From assembly GCF_963921235.1 (NCBI RefSeq), contig NC_086107.1:108564001-108628000 (forward strand): 64,000 nucleotides of DNA, written 5' to 3'. The position numbers and the translations under genes were made by a program. Below are positions 5,738-51,630 of the stretch, in pieces. Position 1 is the stretch's first letter. The number at the start of each line of letters is the position of its first letter. This DNA is from Mobula hypostoma. Its lineage: Eukaryota. Under the pieces are notes generated by a model. That model ran no database searches. It was not told the DNA's origin and saw nothing but the letters and a program-made list of their open reading frames with translations.

Positions 5738-6484
5738 GTTTTCTTTGCTCAGAGAATATGGACATACACTGGAAATGACAGCATTTATTGTCCATCCTTA
5801 ATTGTTAGGTGAAGTGACCAGGCAGATGAAGGGTCAAATACACTGGTGGCTTTGACGTCACGTATAGACCAGACCAGATAAGGAGATCAGACTTCCTTCC
5901 TTGAAGGGTATCAATAAACCAGGTGGGTCTGGTAGACCTTACCAAATTTAAATATGGCAGATGTCACTAAACAAAAATAAGGACAGAGAATGCTGAAAAT
6001 CCTTAGCTCTGACAGAAATTCATCAGACTAAAATGTTAACTCTGTTCCTGTCTCGACAGATGCTGCCTGATCTGCTAAGTATCACCAGCATTCTCTGTTT
6101 TTAGCTTCATGACTCATACAAGTATCTTCTTTTAATTCATTTTTTTTTCAAATGCCATATTTGAATTTAAACTTCCCAGTTTTCACAGCTATAGGTTTTT
6201 ACTCTAACCCACTAATTTCACCTTACAGGAACTATGATTTTTCATTCTAATTTCTGGTTTGATTTGATTATTTGAATTCAAGTTCCTAGATGGCTTTGAG
6301 AGATTTGAACTCTTGTCCCTGGATAAATAGTTCAAACTCTTGCTGAGTCTACTAAATTTAAAATTCAAGATTGCTTAATATCATTTCCAGTCCACAAGTA
6401 TAAAGAAGAATAAAATTATTGTTACTCCATTCCAATACACAGCAAAAAGAAACACAATAAGATAAAGAACATTACCACCATCAT

Positions 6485-12160: not shown

Positions 12161-12574
12161 TCCTGCCTTGACACTTTTTTACAGGAATTTACAGGAAAAA
12201 AATAAATACAATAAAATGTTATGAAAAGCTAAATACTAACAAACAGCCAATTTGCAAAAGAAGACCTAGATGCCCTTGCTTGAGACTCTCACAATCATGG
12301 ATACATCCTAACGTTTACCCTGTCACTGCTCCTTAGGATCATCACTCATTCTTCTGGACAAAGAATACAGACGAGACCTGCCTAGCCTGTCTTGATTGGA
12401 CAATCCTCTCACCCCAGGACTAGATATTAGAAATAGAAAGGAAAAAAGAAGTGCTGGAAACACTCAACATGTCAAGCAGCATCAGTGGAGGTAGAAACAT
12501 ACTGTGGCTAACGTTTCAGGTCAGAAACCCTTTGTCAGAACTGGAAAAGAGTTTCTCTTTCCAAAGATGTTGCC

Positions 12575-12866
12575 TGACCTACGGGAGTCTCTGGCATTCC
12601 CATTCAGAACAGAGATGCGAAGAATTTTTTTAGCCAGAGGGTGGTGGATCTATGGAATTTGTTGCCACGGGCAGCAGTGGAGGCCAAGTCATTGGGTGTA
12701 TTTAAGGCAGAGATTGATAGGTATCTGAGTAGCCAGGGCATCAAAGGTTATAGTGAGAAGGCGGGGGAGTGGGCTGAAATGGGAGAATGGATCAGTTCAT
12801 GATAAAATGGCAGAGTAGACTTGATGGGCCGAATGGCCGACTTCTGCTCCTTTGTCTTATGGTCTA
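12575..12866 (+). mobile_element. CR1-like 3' fragment
   Basis: PFRTEMRR...RVV.LWN motif; tail cttatggtct. Confidence 0.75.
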
Positions 12867-20640: not shown

Positions 20641-21196
20641 CTCTCAGTGGCCACTTGTTAGATACACCTTACACCTGCTCGTTAATGCAAATATCTAATC
20701 AGCCAATCATGTGGCAGCAACTCCTTGCATAAAAGCCTGCAGACATGGTCAAGAGGTTCAGACCAAACACCAAAATGGGGAAGAAATGTGATCTAAGTGA
20801 CTTTGGCCATGGAATGATTGTTGGTGCCAGATGGGGTGGTTTGAGTATCTCAGAAACTGCAGATCTCCTGGGATTTTCACACACAACAGTCTCTAGAGTT
20901 TACAGAGAATGGTGTGGAAAACATAAGACATCCAGTGAGCAGCAGTTCTGTGAGCAAAAATGCTTTGTTAATGAGAGAGGTCAGAGGAGAATGGCCAGAC
21001 TGGTTCAAGCCGAAAGGAAGGTGATAGTAACTCAAACTACCACAAGTTACAACAGTGGTATGCAGGAGAGCATCTTTGAACATACAACACATCGAAGCTT
21101 GAAGTGGATGGGCTACAGCAGCAGAAGACCATGAACGTACACTCAGTGGCCACTTTATTTTGTACAGGAGGTACCAAATAAAGTGGCCACTGAGTG
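20641..21196 (+). mobile_element. Internally deleted Tc1 transposon carrying the transposase N-terminus (ORF 20745-21134)
   Basis: TA-flanked TIRs c(t/a)ctcagtggccact...agtggccactgagtg; MGKKCDLSDF.HGMIVGAR..GLSISETADLLGFSHTTVSRVYREW HTH region; no DDE domain. Confidence 0.85.
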
Positions 21197-22827
21197 TACT
21201 TTTGGAGTCTAAAATGAGGGGAGAGGCAGTTAATGATCTAGTAGTCTTGAAAGTCTGTACAGACAATGCAATTTCTCTGAATTGCAAGCTGCATAAGTGG
21301 GAGGTGTGAGGACCAATGGATGAGGACGTCAAGTCTGGACTGCACCTAATACATGAATGGGTATGCAGAGAGCTTTACCTTTGGAACGAGGAAGGTATTT
21401 CAGCGGGGACAGTATGTCCGAGTGAACACAAAGAACAAAGCAAAGCCAAAATCAATGTCATTAAGACAAAGTCATCCTGGTGCTGAATGCAGGATGTTTC
21501 TCTTGCCTTTGAATCTAGATCTTAGATTTTTAAAAAGGGACAGACATTTATAACTGAGCTGAAGAGAAATTTCTTTATGTAGACAGTGACAAGTTTTTGG
21601 GATTCTTCATCCTAGAGCATGTTGGAAACTCAGTCAAGAAGTTCAATGTAGAGACTGATAGACTGACCAACTTCTGTTAATCTCTCCCAGTGCAGAGATA
21701 TTGAGGGAAAAAAGTAGATAAGAAATGGTATAAATATAATAATAACTTTGGATCAGGAAGGATTAGTTCCCCTGTTGAAGTCAGCTTGTAATAAAGAGTA
21801 AGTTGGTTCTGAAGTTTAACTCCGGACTCTTGCGTGAATTCTTTCCATCTACAATGAAGGCAATGCAGGAAAAGGCATTGGGATTGAAGATCAGCCATGA
21901 TCTTCTTGAGGAGCAAATGTTCCTAATTGCTCAATTGTTCAACTTAATATCAGAGAATGCATACAGTATACAACCCGAAATTCTTACTCTTCACAGACAT
22001 CTGTGAAACAGAAGAAAAACCTCAAAGAATGAATGACAGAAAGCATTCGAAGCCCAAAGACTCCTCCCCCTCCCACGCACAAGCAGCTCTCCCCTCCTCC
22101 TAATCCCACTTGCTCCAGCAAAAGCATCAAGCTGCCCACCACCCACCATGCAAGCAATAGCAAGCCCTAAGAGACCATGATCTAGAGACCATCAAAAACT
22201 ACTGTCCATCCCAACACTTCAACACTTCAGACAGCCTCTCTCTCTCACTCGCGATGGAGAGAGGGAGATTTCGCTCCTGCCCCAACTAGAGGGGGAACAA
22301 ACAGCTCGCTGTTTCGATGATGCAATCTGCCACGTCACCAAATTCCCCCTTGTGGTTGTGTTCAAGCAGCACCTCAGCAGAAGGCAAGGAATTGGAGGAG
22401 AAAATCAGCGAAAGAGCTTCACACAACGCCGAGGTGGATGAGTAATGCAAGAAGTAGGTTTCATATCAACACATGATACCGGTGCTGATCAAAAACCTTG
22501 GCAAGTTTAGAAGTAAAGATTAATAATCAAGGTATCAATGTGAATATATTTCCAGCTGCAGAGTGGTTCACAGTAGGATGGGAAAGAGGTGTTGAATTGG
22601 GGTGTAGAATTGTTAATTTCTTGTAGTTTAACTTTTTTATACTTGTTTATATTTTCATATAATAAGCTATAGATTATTGTTCAGTGAGTTTTCCAGTGGT
22701 TACAGTTGCTTCTGTACTTTTATGGAAACTTCTTGGTTTCAGTGACAAGTGTCACATTACTTGAATCTGGCTATTTTATTAGTTAAATGTAATCAATGGA
22801 AGTTCTGTTATCTCTAGAGAGGGAGAG

Positions 22828-24670: not shown

Positions 24671-24939
24671 GTAATTGTAACAGACTGTAATTGTAACAGG
24701 CTGTAATTCTAAAAGGCTGTAATTGTAACTTTATAAAGTGCAAAAGGCCAGGCTATTGATTATGTGACTCTGCTCGGGTTGAAAGTGTTGAGAATGAGTG
24801 ATGGAAACATAATTAGTAGGAATACATTACAACTACATTTAAAGAAGCTTTAAATGTAGTTGTAATGTGCTCACACTAAATATGGAAATGGCCAATCATT
24901 CTTCAACCTAAATAATCCAGACACCATTACCCTGAATTA

Positions 24940-28249: not shown

Positions 28250-28416
28250 TCAAGATTTGCAAGGAAGAAGTCTAAATGGGGAAGGCAGAAAGTGAGTCTT
28301 TAGTAGCATGGCCAACAAAAGTGCCTTCCTTAATCTTGTCATCAGCTATTCTGACTTGAATTATGAATTGAAATTACAAATATAGGAGATATTTGTTATT
28401 TCAATTCATAATTCAA
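28250..28416 (-). mobile_element. Second, more decayed Chapaev3-like fragment ending in a fold-back
   Basis: Matches 26720-27010 by eye. Confidence 0.6.
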
Positions 28417-30345
28417 CCTTGCTTGTGAAGTTTCCCACAATGGAGATAGGTTCCATGCCACGGACAATACCTGTGACATCTTCTATCACCGTCTAACTTG
28501 TCCTCCTTCTCCTCCTCCAAACTTATTATTCTGGCATCTTCCCCCTTTCTTTCCAGTCTTGATGAAGGATCTTAGTCCAAAACGTTGACCGCCTACTCGC
28601 TTCCATGGATGCTGCCTGACCTGCTGTGTTCCTCCAGCATTTTGCGTGTGTTGATTTGTGGGAAGCATATTGCTTATGTGGAACACGTACAGAGTGAAAG
28701 ATAATCCACACTGATTGCTTAACTCTGCTGCAGGTTGCACAGCAGAGGGGAAAAATTGTCTTGAAGTTTGAAGATGTTTCTCTTATGGTCAACAGGTGGT
28801 AGGTCTGATGGAAGGTCACACTGTTACATTAAACGATATATGATACTCTAATAATGCCTGTTAAATCTGCCCCTTCAATCTAACTCATGCCAACAGGGAC
28901 ACTGTGAATACAAGATATCCAATTGATCGTTCACCCAGAGATAGGAAGAAATTTCTTAACCCAGAATCTGACAGTTCTTTAGAATTCCTTAAGACCCAGA
29001 TGCAGACTGCCTCCAAGACAGAGATGGATAAATTTTAGTATATTAAGAGAACTGAGCAGAGTAAAGCGGGGTTGAAGTTACGTCATTACCAAAGGCGCAC
29101 CTCCCTCCGCTAGTCTGCAAGGTCTAGCACCTGCTTAGCCCCGCGATCAGGGTCCCGTGAAGCCATGGAGCAGGTGACGGATGGTCATATGAGCAGCTGG
29201 TGCATATCACAAGTCTTGGTTTTGTGACCACTGATGCCAGGCGGACAATCTCTGAAGAGTATCGATAATGGCTGGGGTCACCCATCTTGTAAAGACACTG
29301 CCCAGGAGAACAGGGCTTGTGATGTGCATCACCTGCTCATACAACCAGAAGAAGGCAATGGAAAACCACTTTAATTGTATTTATTTATTTACTTGTTGAG
29401 AAGCCACACTGCCCAATTTAATCCCCTGATTTAACCCTAGCCTAATCATGGGAAAATTTTACAATGACCAATTAATCTACCAACCAGTATGCCTTAGGAC
29501 TGTGGGTGGAAACCGGAGCACCTGGAGGAAACCCATGTGATCATGGGGTGAACGTACAAACTCCTTACGGGCAGCAGCGGGAAATAAACCAGAGTTGCCT
29601 GCACTGTGGAGCGTTGTGCTAACCACTTTGCTACTGTGCCACCTCTACTTCTGTAGAAAAATTCGTCAAGAACAATCATGGTCTTGGATAGGCCACAATC
29701 CCCAATGGCATATAATGGTGATGAAAACTATTGGTGCTGAATTAAGGAATAAATCAAGATCCTATCAAATCATGGATTGTTTATGAGGGGCTGAATGGCC
29801 TCTTCCTACTTCCCTTTCTTCTAATTTCTTTGAAGGACTGCTGCCCCTTTAAGGGGTATGTAACACTTCAGGCTGCTGCATTGTGCGTTGGAAGTTCCAG
29901 AGGCAGGCTGCAGGAACAACTGAACAAACACAAGAGATTCTGCAGATGCTGGAAATCCAGAACAACACACACAAAATGCTGGAGGAACTCAGCAGGAATT
30001 CGGGCGGAGGCTCTGATGAAAGGTCTCAGACTGCAGTGTCGGCTGTTTGTTCCTATCCACAGATGCTGCCTGACCTGCTGAGTTACTCCGGCATTTTGTG
30101 CTTGTCCACACAAACACACACACTTTGCTTGAGGTCGCTGTGTGTGCTTCATGTGCGTTGGCGAGTGCAGACTACAAGGTGCCGGTGTAGCTGTGAGACA
30201 CAGGCGGTGTGCTGAGGGCAAGACAAGTCCAGATCCACTCACACCATTCCCAGAGCAGGACTGGTACGCACCTTCCAAGCACATGATGCCTCTCGGCATG
30301 GTGAGGGGAATCACTGTGGGGGAGGGACGACAGCTGAATTTATTT

Positions 30346-30565
30346 GCACAAAATAATCTGCAGATGCCGGGGTCAAAGCAACACTCACAACACGCTGGAG
30401 GAACTCAGCAGGTTGGGCAGCATCCGTGGGAAAGATCGGTCGACGTTTCGGGCCGGAACTCTTCGTCAGGACAGACTTGACGAAGGGTTCCGGCCTGAAA
30501 CATCGACCGATCTTTTCCACGGATGCTGCCCGACCTGCTGAGTTCCTCCAGCGTGTTTTGAGTGT
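30346..30565. mobile_element. 220-bp palindromic PLE-derived element with two inverted hammerheads and a 14-bp TSD
   Basis: TSD agctgaatttattt at 30332-30345 and 30566-30579; about 90-bp inverted arms. Confidence 0.85.
30439..30472 (-). ncRNA. Minimal type-I hammerhead ribozyme motif (near intact)
   Basis: Reverse complement gtc-CTGACGA-a-gagttccggccc-GAAA-cgTC-gac; one stem II mismatch. Confidence 0.65.
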
Positions 30566-30869
30566 AGCTGAATTTATTTTCTCCTTTCTTTTCCTTACTG
30601 GGGTTGAGTTCAGCAAATATGAACTACCCTCCTTACCACACATATTCTGTATCTCACCCATATTCTGTATCGCCCACACTCTTTACCCTCATCCATGTTC
30701 TGCACCTTGGGGAATGGCAGGGTGGGGATCACGTGCAGATAGAAAGGATTAGTTGAATTGACATTATGCTTGGCACAACTTTGTGGACCGAAGAACCTGT
30801 TCCTTTCCTGTACTGTTGTACGTTCCATGGGGAATCACAGCCCAGAGCGCCATGATAGAGTTGCCCTAC

Positions 30870-32075: not shown

Positions 32076-32261
32076 ACTGTCCAATCATCCTTCACCCAAG
32101 AATTCCCCTTCCCAACTTGTAAGTTGGAGATTTAGACTCAGAGACGAATAGCAATCACAGTGCCAGGCACTATTGTAGGTAGGAGGCAGGTATGACGAAG
32201 GGAACACTTTCAGTACGTTGGATGAACTCAGCAGGTCGGGCAGCATCAGTTAGAAACAATG

Positions 32262-32297
32262 AGTCGAAGTTTCGGGCTGGAACCCTTCGTCAGGACT
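32262..32297 (-). ncRNA. Minimal hammerhead motif with a stem III palindrome mutation
   Basis: Reverse complement agtc-CTGACGA-agggttccagccc-GAAA-ctTC-gact. Confidence 0.6.
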
Positions 32298-32785
32298 GAA
32301 GAATGAAAGATGGGGAAGGATTTGAAGAATGCTTGTAGCGTCAGTTGATAGACCAGTAATTTGAAAGACAAAGGGGTGGGGGAGGGGAAGCATTGACGTC
32401 ATAGCCCTGAAAACAATGGGTGGTAGAAGAAGGAGGCAGAACCATGAGGGAGCTGGGGGAGGGGGTAGAGTGAAATAGGGATAGAGGAAGGGAGGGGGAG
32501 GGAATTACCGGAAGTTGGAGAATTCTATGTCCATACCAAGGGGCTGGAGACTACCTAGACGGTATATGAGGTGTTGCTCCTCCAACCTGAGTTTAGCCTC
32601 ATCATGGCAGTAGAGGAGGCCATGTATGGACATAGAATTGGTTCCACCTCCTTCTTCTACTACCCATTGTTTTCGGGGCTATGACATCAATGCTTCCCCT
32701 CCCCCACCCCTTTATCTTTCAAATTACTGGTCTTTCAACTGACGCTACAAGCATTCTTCAAATTCTTCCCCATCTTTCATTCTTC

Positions 32786-32821
32786 AGTCCTGACGAAGGG
32801 TTCCGACCCGAAACGTCGACT
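32786..32821 (+). ncRNA. Intact minimal type-I hammerhead ribozyme motif; predicted cleavage after C32817
   Basis: Stem I agtc/gact, CTGACGA, extra A, stem II gggt-tccg-accc, GAAA, ACGT palindrome, GTC cleavage triplet. Confidence 0.8.
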
Positions 32822-33764
32822 CAGCGTTTCTGACTGATGTTGCCCGACCTGCTGAGTTCATCCAGCGTACTGAAAGTGTTGCTTTGATCTTTTACAGCAT
32901 CTGCAGATTATTTTGTGTTTAAGGTATGATGAAGGGCCTTGGCCTGAAATGTTAACTCTTTACTCTTTTCCATAGATGCTGCCTGACCTTCTGAGCTCCT
33001 CCAGCATTTTGTGTGTGTTGCTTTGAACGTCCAGCATCTGCAGATTCTCCTGTACTTTTGAGGAGGCAGGCATTGTTGTAGAGGGGCTTCATGATACGAA
33101 AACTCCTTCTCTCCTGCCTACACTCAGTAATGAGCTCAATATGAAGATACGAGTTGTGGAAACGCCAATGCCCTTGAATGGAAGATGCTACAAAATTTAA
33201 TGGATGTTGTCCAGCCCATCAGAGGTAAAGCCTTCCCACAACTGAGCACATCTGTAGGAAGCGCTGTCGCAGGAAAGCAGCACCTATCATCAAGGAACAC
33301 CATCTTCTCACTGCTGCCATCAGGAAGGAGATACAGGAGCTTCAGGTGGTGCACCACCAGGAACAGTTATTACCCCTCAGCCATCAGAATCCTGAACCAG
33401 AGGGGATAATTTCTCGGACCCCAACACTGAACTGTTCCAACAACCCACTTTCAAGGACTGTTTGTCACATGCTTTGAATACTACTGCTTATTTATTATTG
33501 TTATCGTTTTGTTTGTTTTATTTTGCTTTTTGTACTTGTCTTTTGCACTGTGAATGCCTGCAAGAAAAGGGATCTCAGAGATGTATATGGTCACATATAT
33601 GTACTTTGATAATAGATTTACTTTGGACTTTGATGACATCAGAGCGATGAGGTCGATCGACTTCTCCACTGTGATCCCGGGTAGGGGTAGCATGATGCAA
33701 ATCCTAGCACACAACACCAGTTTCTCTTGCACAGTCCTGGTTACTTCCTTGATATAGGGAGGGG

Positions 33765-42010: not shown

Positions 42011-42442
42011 ATAAAAAATTTTTAAAAATACATCTCCCTCGACACCGTCCCAACAAATAACCCTGCGGCTGGGACAAGTGCATTTAAACAACAGGTGAAG
42101 CTACTCTGTCATGTCTCATTGATCCTTCCCAAGGCAGAATTATACACACAAAAAATAAAATTTGTCACCAGGGCCCAGGTCATTACACCAAACGGGTGAG
42201 TGTGATGTCTTTTCTTCACAGGCCTTGGGACGACAAGTTGTGACGAGATGCAGACTCCTATCACGACAGTGGAGCTGAAACCATCAAACTGTGAGGGAAA
42301 AATTCCCAGAAGCCAATTATACCGTTGAAATGTGTCAACACATGGCAGCCAGGCTCTGCGCAGTGTCAGTCCCATAGACAGCGCACAGACCGACATCTGC
42401 AGAGAGAACCAATCCCTGTCTTCTCCCCGTGGCACCTGAATG

Positions 42443-44877
42443 AGTGTCTCACTGTCAGAGGGACAGTACTGAGGGAGTGTCTCACTGTCAGAGGGACAGT
42501 ACTGAGGAAGTGTCTCACTGTCAGAGGGACAGTACTGAAGGAGTATCACACTGTCAGAGGGACAGTACTGAGGGAGTATCTCACTGTCAGAGGGACAGTA
42601 CTGAAGGAGTATCACACTGTCAGAGGGACAGTACTGAGGGAGTATCTCACTGTCGGAGGGACAGTACTGAGGGAGTGTCTCACTGTCGGAGGGACAGTAC
42701 TGAGGGAGTGTCACACTGTCGGAGGGACAGTACTGAGGGAGTGTCTCACTGTCGGAGGGACAGTACTGAGGGAGTTTCTCACTGTCGGAGGGACAGTACT
42801 GAGGGAGTGTCTCACTGTCAGAGGGACGGTACTGAGGGAGTGCCGCACTGTCAGAGGGACAATACTGAGGGAGTGTCTCACTGTCAGAGGGACAGTACTG
42901 AGGGAGTGCCACACTGTCAGAGGGACAGTACTGAGGGAGTGTCTCACTGTCAGAGGGACGGTACTGAGGGAGTGCCGCACTGTCAGAGGGACAGTACTGA
43001 GGGAGTGTCTCACTGTCGGAGGGACAGTACTGAGGGAGTGTCTCACTGTCAGAGGGACAGTACCGAGGGAGTGCCACACTGTCAGAGGGACGGTACTGAG
43101 GGACTGTCTCACTGTCAGAGGGACAGTACCGAGGGAGTGCCACACTGTCAGAGGGACAGTACTGAGGGAGTGTCACACTGTCAGAGGGACGGTACTGAGG
43201 GAGTGTAACACTGTAAGAGGGACAGTACCGACGGAGTGTCTCACTGTCGGAGGGACAGTACCAAGGGAGTGTCACACTGTCAGAGGGACAGTACTGAGGG
43301 AGTGTCTCACTGTCAGAGGGACAGTACTGAGGGAGTGTCACACTGTCAGAGGAACAGTACCGAGGGAGTGTTACACTGTCAGAGGGACAGTACTGACGGA
43401 GTGCCACACTGTCAGAGGGACGGTACCGAGGGAGTGTCACACTGTCGGAGGGACGGTACTGAGGGAGTGTCTCACTGTCGGAGGGACGGTACTGACAGAG
43501 TGTCTCACTGTGGGAGGGACAGTACTGAGGGAGTGTCACACTGTCGGAGGGACAGTACTGAGGGAGTGTCACACTGTCAGAGGGACGGTACTGAGGGAGT
43601 GTCTCACTGTCAGAGGGACGGTACCGAGGGAGTGTAACACTGTCAGAGGGACGGTACCGAGGGAGTGTCTCACTGTCGGAGGGACAGTACCGAGGGAGTG
43701 TCTCACTGTCGGAGGGACAGTACCGAGGGAGTGTCACACTGTCGGAGGGACAGTACAGAGGGAGTGTCTCACTATCGGAGGGACAGTACGGAGGGAGTGC
43801 CTCACTGTCAGAGGGACAGTACCGAGGGAGTGTCTCACTGTCGTAGGGACAGTACTGAGGGAGTGTCTCACTGTCAGAGGGACAGTACGGAGGGAGTGTC
43901 TCACTGTCGTAGGGGCAGTACGGAGGGAGTGTCTCACTATCAGAGGGACAGTACGGAGGGAGTGTCTCACTGTCAGAGGGACGGTACTGAGGGAATGTCA
44001 CACTGTCAGAGGGACGATACTGAGGGAGTGTCACACTGTCAGAGGGACAGTACTGAGGGAGTGTCTCACTGTCAGAGGGACAGCACCGAGGGAGTGTCAC
44101 ACTGTCGGAGGGACGGTACTGAGGGAGTGTCTCACTGTCAGAGGGACGGTACGGAGGGAGTGTCACACTGTCAGAGGGACGGTACTGAGGGAGTGTCACA
44201 CTGTCAGAGGGACAGTACTGAGGGAGTGTCTCACTGTCGGAGGGACGGTACTGAGGGAGTGTCTCACTGTCAGAGGGATGGTACCGAGGGAGTGTCTCAC
44301 TGTCAGAGGGACAGTAGCGAGGGAGTGTCTCACTGTCAGAGGGACAGTACCGAGGGAGTGTCTCACTGTCAGAGTGACAGTACCGAGGGAGTGTCTCACT
44401 GTTGGAGGGACAGTACTGAGGGAGTGATGCACTGTCAGAGGGACGGTACTGAGGGAGTGCCTCACTGTCAGAGGGACAGTACTGAGGGAGTGTCTCACTG
44501 TCGGAGGGACAGTACTGAGGGAGTGTCTCACTGTCGGAGGGACAGTACTGAGGGAGTGTCGCACTGTCAGAGGGACAGTACCGAGGGAATGTCACACTGT
44601 CAGAGGGACAGTACTGAGGGAGTGTCTCACTGTCGGAGGTACAGTACTGAGGGAGTGTCTCACTGTTGGAGGGACAGTACTGAGGGAGTGCCTCACTGTC
44701 GGAGGGACAGCACTGAGGGAGTGTCACACTGTCAGAGGGACAGTACTGACGGAGTGTCTCACTGTCAGAGGGACGGTACTGAGGGAGTGTCTCACTGTCA
44801 GAGGGACAGTACTGAGGGAGTGTCTCACTGTCATAGGGACAGCACTGAGGGAGTGTCACACTGTCAGAGGGACAGTA
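42443..44877. repeat. 33-bp minisatellite, about 74 units (consensus ctcactgtcagagggacagtactgagggagtgt)
   Basis: Directly visible; 11-aa periodicity in all overlapping ORFs. Confidence 0.97.
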
Positions 44878-45364
44878 TTCTCCTTCCTTACTCCCTTACC
44901 TTTTTATTGTGGCATCTTTCCATTCGTAAAGAAGGCTCTCAATCCGAAACGTCAACCTGCTGAGTTCCTCCAGCAACTTGTGTGTGTTGCTTTGGATTTT
45001 CAGCATCTGCAGAACCTCTCATGTTTCTGTTTTTTTTAAATTTTTTGTTTTATTTGATTTTGATTTTATTTCATTTGGAGGTGCAGCATGACTCAGGCCA
45101 TTTGGGCCCAACGACTCACTTAGCTTAAGCACAGGACAATTTCAATGACCAATTACCCTACGATACGTTATGCCTTTGGACTGTCGGAGGAAACCAGAGC
45201 ACCCAGAGGAAACCCACACTGCCATGGGGAGATCTACAAGCTTCTTGTAGACGTCACCAGAGATGAACTCTGAACTCCGGCACCCCCATCTGTAATACGG
45301 TTGCGCTAACTGCCACGCTAATGTGGTGCCCTTTTCTCTCTTTTGAACAAGTTTTCCACTTTGT

Positions 45365-45865: not shown

Positions 45866-46082
45866 CCACTTTGTATCAATGCACACAAAATGCTGGAGGA
45901 ACTCAGCATCTATGGAGGTAAACAAATATTTGATGTACTGTATAAGGTCAAGACCCTTCATCAGAGCTGTGTGTGTTGATCCAGATTTCCATCATCTGCA
46001 CTCTCTCTTTTGCTTTCACTTTGTACCTCTCCCACTCTCTGCCACCCACACCTACCTCACTCTTCATCCCCCACCCCCCAGG

Positions 46083-47465: not shown

Positions 47466-49681
47466 GGTTGTCATTCAGTGTAAGAAGTGATAATATATCA
47501 CCACTCTGTACCTCAGCCTTTCAATATACATTCTACCGATCATTAGTTAAACCAGAATATGGTATCTGCAGCACAGACAGGCCAGGCTCCATGCCGGGCA
47601 GAGGGCTTAATTTCGGGTCACCTTGTGCCTGTTGAGATGATGACGGGGACATCAGAGCTCATTCGCCTCAAAATGAGCAGCCAGAACCAAATATTCAGGG
47701 TTTGACAGAAAGTGCAGAACATTGGGAGGGATGCAGGAACCTGGGTTGGAGGTGGATCAAGAGGCAAGTGAGGCTTTGGACCTTCCCCACCACAAATTAA
47801 TGACCCTTCCCTAAATACATCACTTCTACCTCATCCCCAACATGAATTACTCCATCTTTTCCCCTCTCAAACACAAGTTCATCTTCACTCTTGCTGGCAA
47901 CAACCCACCTCATTTAAAGCACACCTTCAGTTAAAAGCTTGGAGCATGAGCAATGGGGCCTGGGACAGGATCGAAGTTTCAGTATCTATGTTAACTCAAA
48001 TTGAATGTTTCTTCTATTCTGCCCCTTTTATTTTAACTGCTTCATTTCCAGTAGCATTTATTGCCTACCCATTAACCCCCTTGAGAAGGTGACGGTGAAA
48101 CTCCATCTGGAACCATTGCAGTCCATCTGGGGCAAACATTTCCACTAAGTTGCTGGAGGGTGCATTCCAGGATTTAGGTTCAGTGGCAATGACAGGCCAG
48201 TGGTATACTTGATAAGGAACCAGAGGTATATTCAATGTTGGACTAATGGTATATCCAATGAGGGACCACTGATAACATATTCAACAACAGACTAGTGGCA
48301 CATTCCCCCAGATCTCCTTAATCACTCCTCCATTCAGCTGAGGAGATCCCATTCCTTCCACAAGCCTCTCCTCTTCAAAGGTTTCAGGATAGGTTGCTTA
48401 ATGTCAGCCTGACCGCACACTTATGAACTGCAAACGGTGACTGGTGTTCTGCCCTCCGGGCAATTCATTTATGTCTTTTTCTATGTGATTAAATACATTC
48501 AGTTTTTATTTTAGTGAGCGGTTGCTGGTTTGCATTAGGCCACTTCCTGTGCTGTCAGGAAGTAGTAAGCAGGAAAGCACATTGGCTCACAAGAGTTCAG
48601 AGATTTACGTCAGGAACGAAAGAAGCTTCTATCTAAAGCCATCCTGTTGTTTCCCCAGCAGAAGCATTGCCTGTAAATTGACGTTATATTGCTTAGAAGT
48701 TAATCTAACGGTATCAATAAGATTTTGCTGAAATAGAATGCTGTTTTTGAGTTTATTAGACACTAACCTATACGCTAATGGTTTGCACATACTAGATACC
48801 TGTAGTACTTACCTGTTGGAATCCTATAATGTTTGCATACTGAAAACTTAATTAAATTCTTACTTATCTGTGTGTATTTACTTGTGTGAATGGAACAACA
48901 CAGTAATTACACAGCACTTTGCTGTTTTTCAGTTTCACTCCTTTTTCACTTTATCGTGCCTGAGTCTGCAATTATACCCAAGGCGCTCGGAGGCTATACC
49001 CCGACTCTCATGTCATTTTTGAATGGAGTTTGCCTGACTGTCTAGTCAATGTTACAACACCTCAGCGCGGGCGGTACGACTGGCGTGTTAAAGTTATAGA
49101 ACTCAGAATTAAAACTGGTTAATTTTTTTGGTTCATCTTGTCACGCGAAAGTGACAAAAGAATGGGTGGGTGGTTGGGGACACAGCAAACAGAGAATAAA
49201 CCTCCTCAGGACGGAACTGGTGCAGAGGAGCCAGCAGATGTTTCTATGTTGTAAACGCAAGAGATTCTGCAGATGCAGGAAATCTTTAGCAACACACGCA
49301 AAATGCTGGAGGAACTCAACAAGTTAGGCAGCATCTGTGGAGAGGAGTTAATAGTTGACAGTTCTGGCCAAGATCCTTCATCAGAATTGGAAAGGAGAAA
49401 GGGGGGAAGAAGCCAGAATAAGATGCTGAGGGGAGGGGAAGGAGCACAAGTGGGCAGATGAGGGATGAGGGGTGGGGCAGAGGGGGATAAAGTAAGAAGC
49501 AGGGAGGTACTAGGTGGAAGAGCTAAAGGGCTGAATAAGAATGATTCTAATAGGAGAGGACTGTGGACTATGGAAGAAAGGAGGAGGGGAACCAGAGGGA
49601 GGTCACAATGTCCTGTGGCCCTAACCTAATCATTCAAGGCACGAGAATGGATTAGCATGCCGTGTGTGGGCACTTGCTGTA

Positions 49682-49999
49682 CGAGGGGTGATTGATAAGT
49701 TTGTGGCCTAAGGTAGAAGGAGATGAGTTATTAACTTCCAACTTTCTGCATAGTCACTCAAAGAGTTGAACTGCATGTGCATGTAATGAGAGTTGTATAA
49801 CTCATCTTCTACCTTAGGCCACGAGCTTATCAATCACCCCTGCTGTGGACACTTTCTGGAGGTCCAAGATCCGTATGCTCCACGACCGCTGGACTAAGTG
49901 TGTAAATGTAGGAGGGGACTATGTTGAAAAATAAATGTGCTAGGTTTTCTAAAATTGACTCCTTCTGCCTTAGGCCACGAGCTTATCAATCTCCCCTCA
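49682..49999 (+). mobile_element. Non-autonomous mariner element
   Basis: TA-flanked TIR cgaggggtgattgataag...; 49869-49934 encodes IRMLHDRWTKCVNVGGDYVEK*, the mariner transposase C-terminus. Confidence 0.85.
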
Positions 50000-51630
50000 T
50001 ATATTACTATGCTCTACACATTACAACAAAGGCTGTGTGTATATTAATTGACATGGATAACAGAAAACAGTCATAATCAATGGGTCATGTTCTGACGAGC
50101 ATTTGGAGACCGGTGGGATGTCACAGGCATCGTCGCTGGGAATTCATTTGGTTATCTCTTTAGCCATGTACAAAGTGCTAGAGAAACTCAACAGGTCAGG
50201 CAGCATCTATGAAGGAGAATGAGCCATCGATGTAAATGGAGAATCAATGGTGATGACTTGGATGGCGGATGCTGTAGGCAGACTTGCCAATGCTACAAAG
50301 TCAGGAAGACCAAAAAAGAAGTTGACAGATGATGCACAATGTGAGAAAATGAGAAGGAGAAATGCAGGGGCAGATTATTATTTACGCAGAGTGAGATCAC
50401 AAAATCTTACAGTACAGGGAGATCCCGGAGCAGGATAAACAAAGTGCAGCAGCTAAGTAGGAAGCCTAAATGGGTGTTACACTTATTGTGAGAGATGTGG
50501 AGTATAAAAGCAGGGGAATATTTGCAATTTCATGTAGTGTGTGCAGTTTTGGCTTACATACTGAAGGAAGGATGTAGTCACTTCACAGCCAGTGTGAAGA
50601 AGGTTCACCAGCTCATTTCCAGAGATGAAGGGATTGACCTAAAGAGTAAGTTTTTCTGGTTTGGCTGATAGTCATTGGAATTTTGAAGAATGAGAGGTGA
50701 TTTTATGGAAATTGATGATAATGGATGCTGAGAAAATGTTTCACTTCAATGAAGTATCTCGAAAAAGACTCTGGTTTCAGCCCATATTCCAAAGATGTAT
50801 GGGTTAGTAGTTTAATTGGTCACATGGGTGTAATTGGGCGGTATGGGCTTGTTGGCTCTGTTACTAGAGCTCTCTAAATCTAAATTTAAGTTTACTGTTC
50901 CTGTTCCTGAATCTTCACTACCTGAAGACGTGCAGTGCTGTACAATTCTGTACCCTTCCTTTTAAGTATTTACATTTTGTATAGATTGATTCACCTCAGT
51001 TTGTTGTGTCATGGGTCTGGAGCTTCTCTGGGACAATCTTACCCCTGTTACCTCCCCAGTGATCCAATCCAACTTGGAACTCCAAGACCCAAGAGGTTCT
51101 GCAGACGCTGAATTAATCAGAGTAATACCTACAAAATGCTGGAGGAACTCAACAAGTCAGGCAGCATCTAAGGAATGGAATAAAGAGTCGATGTTTTGGG
51201 CTGAAGCCATTCATCAGAAATCTGAGAACAATTGGGCCAACCACAAAGAAACAGGACTAAGTTTCACACAGGTGATCCAGAACAGTAAAGATAAGTATAA
51301 CACAGGAGAAAAGTACAGGAAAAAGAGATATATAGGTTTAGTATTTGTTAGGTCACATTCTGGAGTTAGGGGATAGAACAAATATCAATCTCAACAGCAA
51401 CTAACCTTCAGATCTGAATATGGATTGTAGATTAAATTTAAAATGCAGCTCAGAACAGGAAACATCCAGTTGACTGAGATGTCTGCATATGCATGAATAC
51501 AATCAACACCCTACGTCATGCATACAACTCAGAGATCTCAGTAATTAACACTTATTTTGGGTGTGTTGGTGGAAAAATCAGGCATTTGAAAAAAATTACA
51601 TATAATTCAAAAGAAGCATCATGAGAGCAT

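Follow-up and report, generated by a model that had tools for sequence, protein, structure and literature searches.

A short palindrome in the genome of Mobula hypostoma, which carries hammerhead motifs on both strands and is flanked by a direct duplication, raises the question of whether it is a small mobile element in its own right or was formed when a Penelope-like element (PLE) inserted at this site. We examined it in the 64,000-nt stretch of contig NC_086107.1 that surrounds it (referred to as the window), and all positions given below are those of the window.

The insert occupies 30346-30565, that is, 220 bases between two identical 14-mers. The first-pass annotation had described a palindrome of about 220 bp at 30332..30579, with a hammerhead and a tail in each arm. 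The palindrome itself was confirmed: the inverted arms at 30377-30468 and 30478-30569 are 92 nt long and 92% complementary, and 34 of 39 mirrored positions match around an axis at base 30473, against 13 at most around any other axis. The description of the arms was incorrect, however; a PLE-type tail is present only on the left arm, where 30346-30380 has no mirror copy over 35 bases (31 if the mirror is extended into the right duplication), and the insert is asymmetric. Either strand folded in silico into a single long hairpin with a 5-base loop (-183 kcal/mol for the plus strand and -169.3 for the minus strand), far past the shuffled controls (z of approximately -22.6 and -22.7, with none of 200 shuffles equally stable). 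The two arms differ at 8 of 96 sites, and three of these eight differences are CpG transitions. The features of the locus are as follows:

30332..30345 (no strand): left 14-bp target-site duplication; it is rich in A+T, and ATT words occupy the end next to the insert.
30346..30380 (minus strand): PLE "tail", the 35 unmirrored bases, with the putative outer reverse-transcription start; comparable tails are described in the available portions of PMC8557442, PMC3846280, and PMC11167929.
30381..30472 (minus strand): tailed arm, a 5'-truncated PLE end that begins 3 bases ahead of hammerhead C3 and extends to the boundary of the tail.
30439..30472 (minus strand): minimal type I hammerhead motif with a complete core, C3 at 30469, and the GUC ending at 30442; the motif is as in the accessible part of PMC4209133.
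30469..30477 (no strand): head-to-head junction around the axis at 30473; its centre is one base, with two changes acquired later, or else 30473-30477 is a 5-base filler.
30474..30565 (plus strand): inverted arm without a tail, whose end lies 88 bases past C3 (90 in the sister insertion described below), with the putative inner reverse-transcription start.
30474..30507 (plus strand): broken hammerhead motif, changed at 30475, 30477, 30496, and 30502.
30566..30579 (no strand): right target-site duplication, the same as the left one here, with one change (30578) in a related species.

The perfect 14-bp duplication reported earlier was also substantiated. The 14-mer is exact and occurs only at these two positions within the window, and our duplication finder gave a score of 14 at the insert, whereas among 137 random spans of similar size 133 scored 0 and four scored 7. 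No other exact 14-mer repeats spaced 224-244 apart were found outside one tandem array, three repeat-rich stretches having been set aside. Contigs from a DNA run of the same species, which may be the source of the assembly, pass from each flank into the insert without differences at a depth of 16-18; the insert is therefore not an assembly artefact. Of the four sequencing runs compared, the two DNA runs with coverage of the flanks, from this species and from a related one, carry the insertion and show no empty site; a third DNA run matched in repeats, and a presumed RNA run matched outside the unique flanks. Both junctions are present in the contigs of the related species. The latter differ from the window at 8 of 298 letters on the left and 8 of 262 on the right (16 of 560 in total, approximately 2.9%). 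The two arms of the insert are 1.8 to 2.9 times as divergent from each other as the two species are, which suggests that the insertion is old.

A profile search recovered 26 pieces of this repeat in the 64 kb. Upstream, the longer copies continue across a pyrimidine-rich stretch and reach the end of a reading frame, and the arms of the insert match the end of those longer copies that bear the C-terminal end of the PLE frame. A Pfam search with the 43-residue C-terminus gave no hits. Its nearest named Atlas cluster was GIY-YIG (score 0.82, the family being assigned to 15% of the members), and the ten best named hits all belonged to one family or clan; the GIY-YIG label is a lead only. No full reverse transcriptase frame was found in the window. 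The 3' ends of the 26 copies cluster in two ranges relative to C3, +122 to +131 (15 copies) and +65 to +99 (11 copies), as measured with a profile that was built from the longer copies and ends at +131; the arms of the insert end at +123 (tailed) and +88 (tail-less). The repeat is very abundant in this genome: in the same-species run, the summed depth on the arms, which is not a copy number, reached up to 4.5 million, compared with 16-18 on the flanks. Stop-free frames cross the insert at 30311-30682 (minus strand) and 30357-30752 (plus strand), and the earlier statement that it holds no coding sequence was not confirmed as written. The hammerhead strand of the insert's subfamily is stop-free through motif and tail (30311-30682, minus strand), whereas most other copies have acquired stops via CpG decay; this stretch is perhaps the start of a PLE reading frame.

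Insertions of this form have been reported for other PLEs. The accessible portion of PMC8557442 describes an inverted, 5'-truncated copy beside a PLE insertion and a tail of 30-40 bp that is often found at one end only. In the available text of PMC3846280, a 31-bp tail is present on one inverted repeat, duplications measure 8-10 bp, the head-to-head arrangement is the commonest, and self-priming is proposed; inverted Penelope ends of variable size in Drosophila virilis are described in PMC2377424, again as far as its available text extends. The insert has arms homologous to the PLE end that are head-to-head and 5'-truncated, a one-sided tail in the 30-40 bp range, and a single enclosing duplication. 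A tailed arm joined to an inverted tail-less arm within one duplication is the published PLE layout, and the insert is therefore very probably an ordinary by-product of PLE insertion. Pen2a_Av of Adineta vaga (PMC3846280), Penelope of D. virilis (PMC2377424), and the scheme in PMC8557442, in the sections available, all share with it inverted 5'-truncated copies, a one-sided tail, and one enclosing duplication; the tail is 31 bp long in Pen2a_Av and 31-35 in the insert. The insert differs from the rotifer and Drosophila cases in that both of its arms are about 90 bases long with no reading frame between them, and its duplication is 14 bp rather than the 8-10 bp of the rotifer.

Biochemical data on PAc, Poseidon of Anolis carolinensis, are also relevant to the two ends of the insert. 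According to the accessible part of PMC11167929, both strands of the target are cleaved and extended in vitro by the PLE protein, with a preference for ATT, and reverse transcription begins at two start sites whose spacing equals the tail. The insert resembles this system in having two ends a tail apart, approximately 90-130 bases downstream of the hammerhead, and an A+T-rich target with ATT words. However, the start site of PAc is AC-rich, whereas the boundary in the insert is GU-rich on the hammerhead strand, and the head-to-head joint was not reconstituted in the work covered by that part of the paper.

A second inverted PLE insertion of the same subfamily, overlooked in the first-pass annotation, lies at 32203-32921, 1.6 kb from the insert. 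Its arms are 77-81% alike to those of the insert, while most other copies in the window show 60-72%. Together with its 15-bp duplication, which carries one change, it spans 32188-32936; the arms of 247 nt begin at about -150 and -345 and include the C-terminal end of the PLE reading frame. Measured from C3, its tailed arm ends at +131 and its tail-less arm at +90, and the sister insertion and the insert thus have the same two ends but different centres. Each sister arm contains sequence that is absent from the other; therefore, neither arose from the other by fold-back, and two primings are needed. The sister insertion also contains an intact minimal hammerhead at 32790-32817, and it lies within the hammerhead core of a solo copy that is older and has its own duplication of 10-13 bp (32181-32193 and 33061-33073). 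A 16-base inverted match to sequence farther upstream in the sister (32521-32536 and 32624-32639) coincides exactly with the end of its junction, as if the cDNA end might have briefly folded back before joining.

The hammerhead motifs of the insert are not equivalent. Our core descriptor had two matches in the window, and within the insert it matched only the minus-strand hammerhead at 30469-30442; a search of the 64-kb window with Rfam at the gathering score gave no matches. The minus-strand motif has a complete core, a stem II mismatch at 30460, an extra base after A9, and a palindromic ACGU replacing stem III. In the plus-strand motif, the changes affect stem I (30475), C3 (30477), C11.1 (30496), and the cleavage triplet (30502, GUC to AUC). 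The claim that a transcript of either strand holds one sense ribozyme is wrong for the plus strand. When the intact core and G10.1-C11.1 pair of the minimal hammerhead (min-HHR) are considered, both are found in the minus arm, apart from the mismatch at 30460, and not in the plus arm. The right-arm hammerhead is incomplete under both readings of the junction; with the 5-base filler the right arm would start just after C3.

In the available text of PMC4209133, minimal hammerheads of metazoan PLEs need dimers and show low activity, and paired opposite-strand minimal hammerheads lie 100-700 bp apart. The insert shares with these min-HHRs the core boxes, the extra base between A9 and G10.1, the G10.1-C11.1 pair, the palindromic 15.2-16.2, and the close opposite-strand pairing; however, both of its motifs are damaged, the plus-strand one badly, and the two are only about 10 bases apart. 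Its layout offers no second hammerhead on the same strand, and the hairpin would bury the motif, whose local fold is worth just a few kcal/mol. A read-through transcript is predicted to form a hairpin of 92 bp in which the ribozyme is buried, and the idea that such a transcript might be an siRNA or ADAR substrate is only structural.

A self-propagating family would consist of many copies that share one centre but have different duplications. Six inverted insertions were identified in the window (near 5950-6105, 12450-12582, 29926-30105, the insert at 30346-30565, 32203-32921, and 45876-46009), and they have six different centres. A duplication was detectable in four of the six (14 bp, 15 bp, and twice 9 bp; the 9-mer at 29924 has low complexity), and the duplication finder detected none near 5950-6106, 12450-12590, or 51087-51222. 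The similar palindromes noted earlier near 5975-6105, 29930-30100, and 45890-46000 do exist, but they have other junctions and unequal arms; the palindrome that was compared in detail (30010-30105) is just 66-67% like the arms of the insert. The pair at 12450-12582, absent from the earlier note, is a decayed head-to-head pair whose plus arm breaks off beside a LINE-like stretch, and at 45867-46025 the tailed arm consists of little beyond the tail (+81 to +125) and the duplication is 9-11 bp.

The 19-mer at the centre of the insert occurs once in the 64-kb window. Among the contig joints over 30116-30805, we examined the best 15 of 171 joints and the best-supported 12 of 96 spelled-out joints; this survey does not list centres identical to that of the insert as joints. 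The 12 spelled-out joints included 10 head-to-head joints of this species, all of which differ and have a depth of 13.7-17.7, compared with 16-18 on the unique flank. The best 15 of the 171 joints had a depth of at most 48.5 in this species' run, with one or two contigs each, and in 13 of these 15 the sequence between the two sides is not resolved, so that they could be same-centre palindromes with diverged middles. A third organism showed one head-to-head joint, from 30434 to 30514, at a depth of 89.3, several times the single-copy level, possibly from local amplification. A contig of single-copy depth in the related species spans the centre of the insert with seven differences and six gap letters, and represents either the orthologue or a second locus. 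In the same-species run, neither A>T at 30475 nor T>C at 30477 reached 3%, which is a weak bound at the very high local depth. The contig comparison showed no rare change common to both arms of the insert, and exact-pattern scans of viral contigs, metagenome contigs, and prokaryote genomes found nothing. Our literature search, which did not extend to subscription papers or Repbase entries, found no published report of such palindromes in cartilaginous fishes. A clonal palindromic family is thus unsupported. The first-pass annotation had left two options, and the one-sided tail, the sister insertion, and the diverse junctions favour a recurring product of PLE inverted-end formation, while the self-propagating, MITE-shaped element has no support among the insertions and joints examined.

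The positions at which the copies start provide a lead. Eight of the 26 copies start between -11 and +1 from C3, where approximately one would be expected from the rate just downstream (P of about 1e-5 by Poisson and 2e-4 by binomial, for a range picked post hoc in a small sample, with the profile built from the longer copies). Two of the eight are the insert's own arms, and for six the start is set by a duplication or an inverted partner as well as by the alignment. The cleavage site was rejected as a turning point; only 1 of the 26 copies starts within 4 bases of it (near +28). In the longer copies, a pyrimidine tract and CAG immediately precede the hammerhead motif, and a 4-base inverted match straddles its 5' edge. 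The word before C3 resembles an initiator. Candidate causes of the edge starts include RNA initiation at this initiator-like word, an intron end, a stall, and short inverted matches; in D. virilis the intron ends at helix I according to the accessible part of PMC4209133. Because arms stop preferentially at the hammerhead 5' edge, a shared centre alone is no proof of a replicating family, and look-alike centres with different duplications can recur without a replicating palindrome. Such independent recurrence weakens the test suggested earlier, in which many identical junctions with different duplications would indicate a family, unless private changes are compared too.

These results suggest that the insert is very probably a single old head-to-head insertion by an endonuclease-bearing PLE, and that the palindrome was made at insertion and is not itself a mobile unit. 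The GIY-YIG endonuclease would have cut the A+T-rich target with a stagger of 14 bases, judging from the duplication, and both free 3' ends would then have primed reverse transcription on PLE RNA, as suggested by the two ends of the insert and the in vitro start sites of the anole PLE. One priming would have taken place at the outer start, giving the tailed arm, and the other about 35 bases further in, giving the tail-less arm. From the geometry, the tailed cDNA was probably primed by the 3' end of the top strand that follows the left 14-mer, and the tail-less cDNA by the 3' end of the bottom strand that precedes the right 14-mer. Both cDNAs may have stopped early at the hammerhead 5' edge and been joined head to head, whereupon repair would have filled in the duplication. 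The insert has decayed since then at the DNA level.

A fold-back origin is unlikely, although it would account for several features. One PLE cDNA would prime itself at a short inverted match beside the hammerhead, and the second arm, copied from the first, would be trimmed by the endonuclease. The tail-less arm is indeed nearly all contained in the tailed arm, and the arm length is compatible with this origin for the insert alone; the 4-base match at the hammerhead edge and the 16-base match at the sister junction could serve as priming sites, and the available parts of PMC3846280 and PMC8557442 propose self-priming and endonuclease resolution of the tail, respectively. However, folding back over a loop of a single base is impossible, and the 5-base filler reading would have to hold; the arms of the sister insertion and of that at 45876-46009 each have sequence that the other lacks, and the tail-less end coincides with the second start site demonstrated in vitro in the accessible text of PMC11167929. 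Two separate insertions, or a later central deletion in a longer inverted insertion, would be surprising. Copies are dense (26 in 64 kb) with one nested in another at 32188-33073, and long palindromes can lose their centres; nevertheless, a single duplication encloses both arms, both belong to one subfamily (90% alike), and a deletion is not expected to stop at the very landmark where 8 of 26 copies start.

It is very improbable that the palindrome is a self-propagating non-autonomous element, transcribed as a complete hairpin that PLE proteins insert anew. It does possess the cis end, the tail, that PLE proteins use, trans mobilisation by terminal repeats has been published (PMC3846280, in its available portion), and both arms end at the same landmark. 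On the other hand, its centre recurs neither in the window nor among the six inverted insertions, the joints examined (10 spelled out in this species) are diverse and of single-copy depth, and the changes at 30475 and 30477 stay below 3% in this species' run, weak as that bound is. Moreover, a hairpin copied anew would not be expected to terminate precisely at the inner start site a second time, and comparison of the two arms revealed no A-to-G run between them. Movement of a MITE by a transposase at the DNA level is extremely improbable. MITEs and retrozymes, like the insert, are short, hairpin-forming, and duplication-flanked and lack a recognised gene, and the insert also has inverted repeats. 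Its repeats are not terminal, however, as the left terminal 31-35 bases are unmirrored; its ends are the two PLE ends found throughout the window, and 14 bp is longer than the duplications known for common cut-and-paste superfamilies. The insert further departs from MITEs and retrozymes in that its ribozyme motifs are on opposite strands rather than in tandem and there is no sign of a clonal family.

A variant of the PLE insertion that we consider doubtful, although worth stating, is that the hammerhead 5' edge represents a genuine end of the RNA or a hard stop. An RNA of about 130 bases comprising hammerhead and tail would then move in trans as SINEs do, its two run-off cDNAs, primed from both target strands, would be joined head to head, and near-identical double-hammerhead palindromes would be rebuilt independently many times, giving a pseudo-family by convergence. 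This candidate RNA might begin at the initiator-like word or be bounded by the splice-acceptor-like pyrimidine tract and CAG. If this were true, the convergent pseudo-family would record the in vivo use of both PLE start sites in one event.

As a single old PLE insertion, the insert is a small, clear-cut example of an insertion pattern already in print and, as it stands, matters little. Short two-armed insertions are abundant here, however, and are fossils of a PLE integration step that is still unsolved; the arm starts and ends of such insertions across the genome could decide between two primings and fold-back, and whether the hammerhead 5' edge is an RNA end. If a clonal palindromic family did exist, it would represent a non-autonomous retroelement of an unusual type and would supply long double-stranded RNA from dispersed loci.

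No host gene around the insert was established by Pfam, Atlas, structure, and homologue searches of candidate exons. An open, single-copy frame at 30171-30300 (plus strand) has a GT donor at its end, 31 bases short of the left duplication; over 129 bases of it, no difference between the two species is listed in a table that covers all but 8 of its rows (P of about 0.02), and four differences occur in the next 16 bases. As a candidate exon it was unsupported, with no homologue (in a weak search), solved structure, or Pfam or Atlas hit, and a minus-strand candidate exon at 30313-30243 was rejected since its acceptor is lost in the related species. Elsewhere in the window, 42109-44895 is a long tandem array with a 33-base period that is stop-free in several frames. 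Short near-perfect palindromes unrelated to the PLE end are present at 21134-21202, 24808-24884, 28356-28416, and 49680-50001, and the one at 21134-21202 adjoins a Tc1-like transposase remnant (20733-21134, with weak HTH hits).
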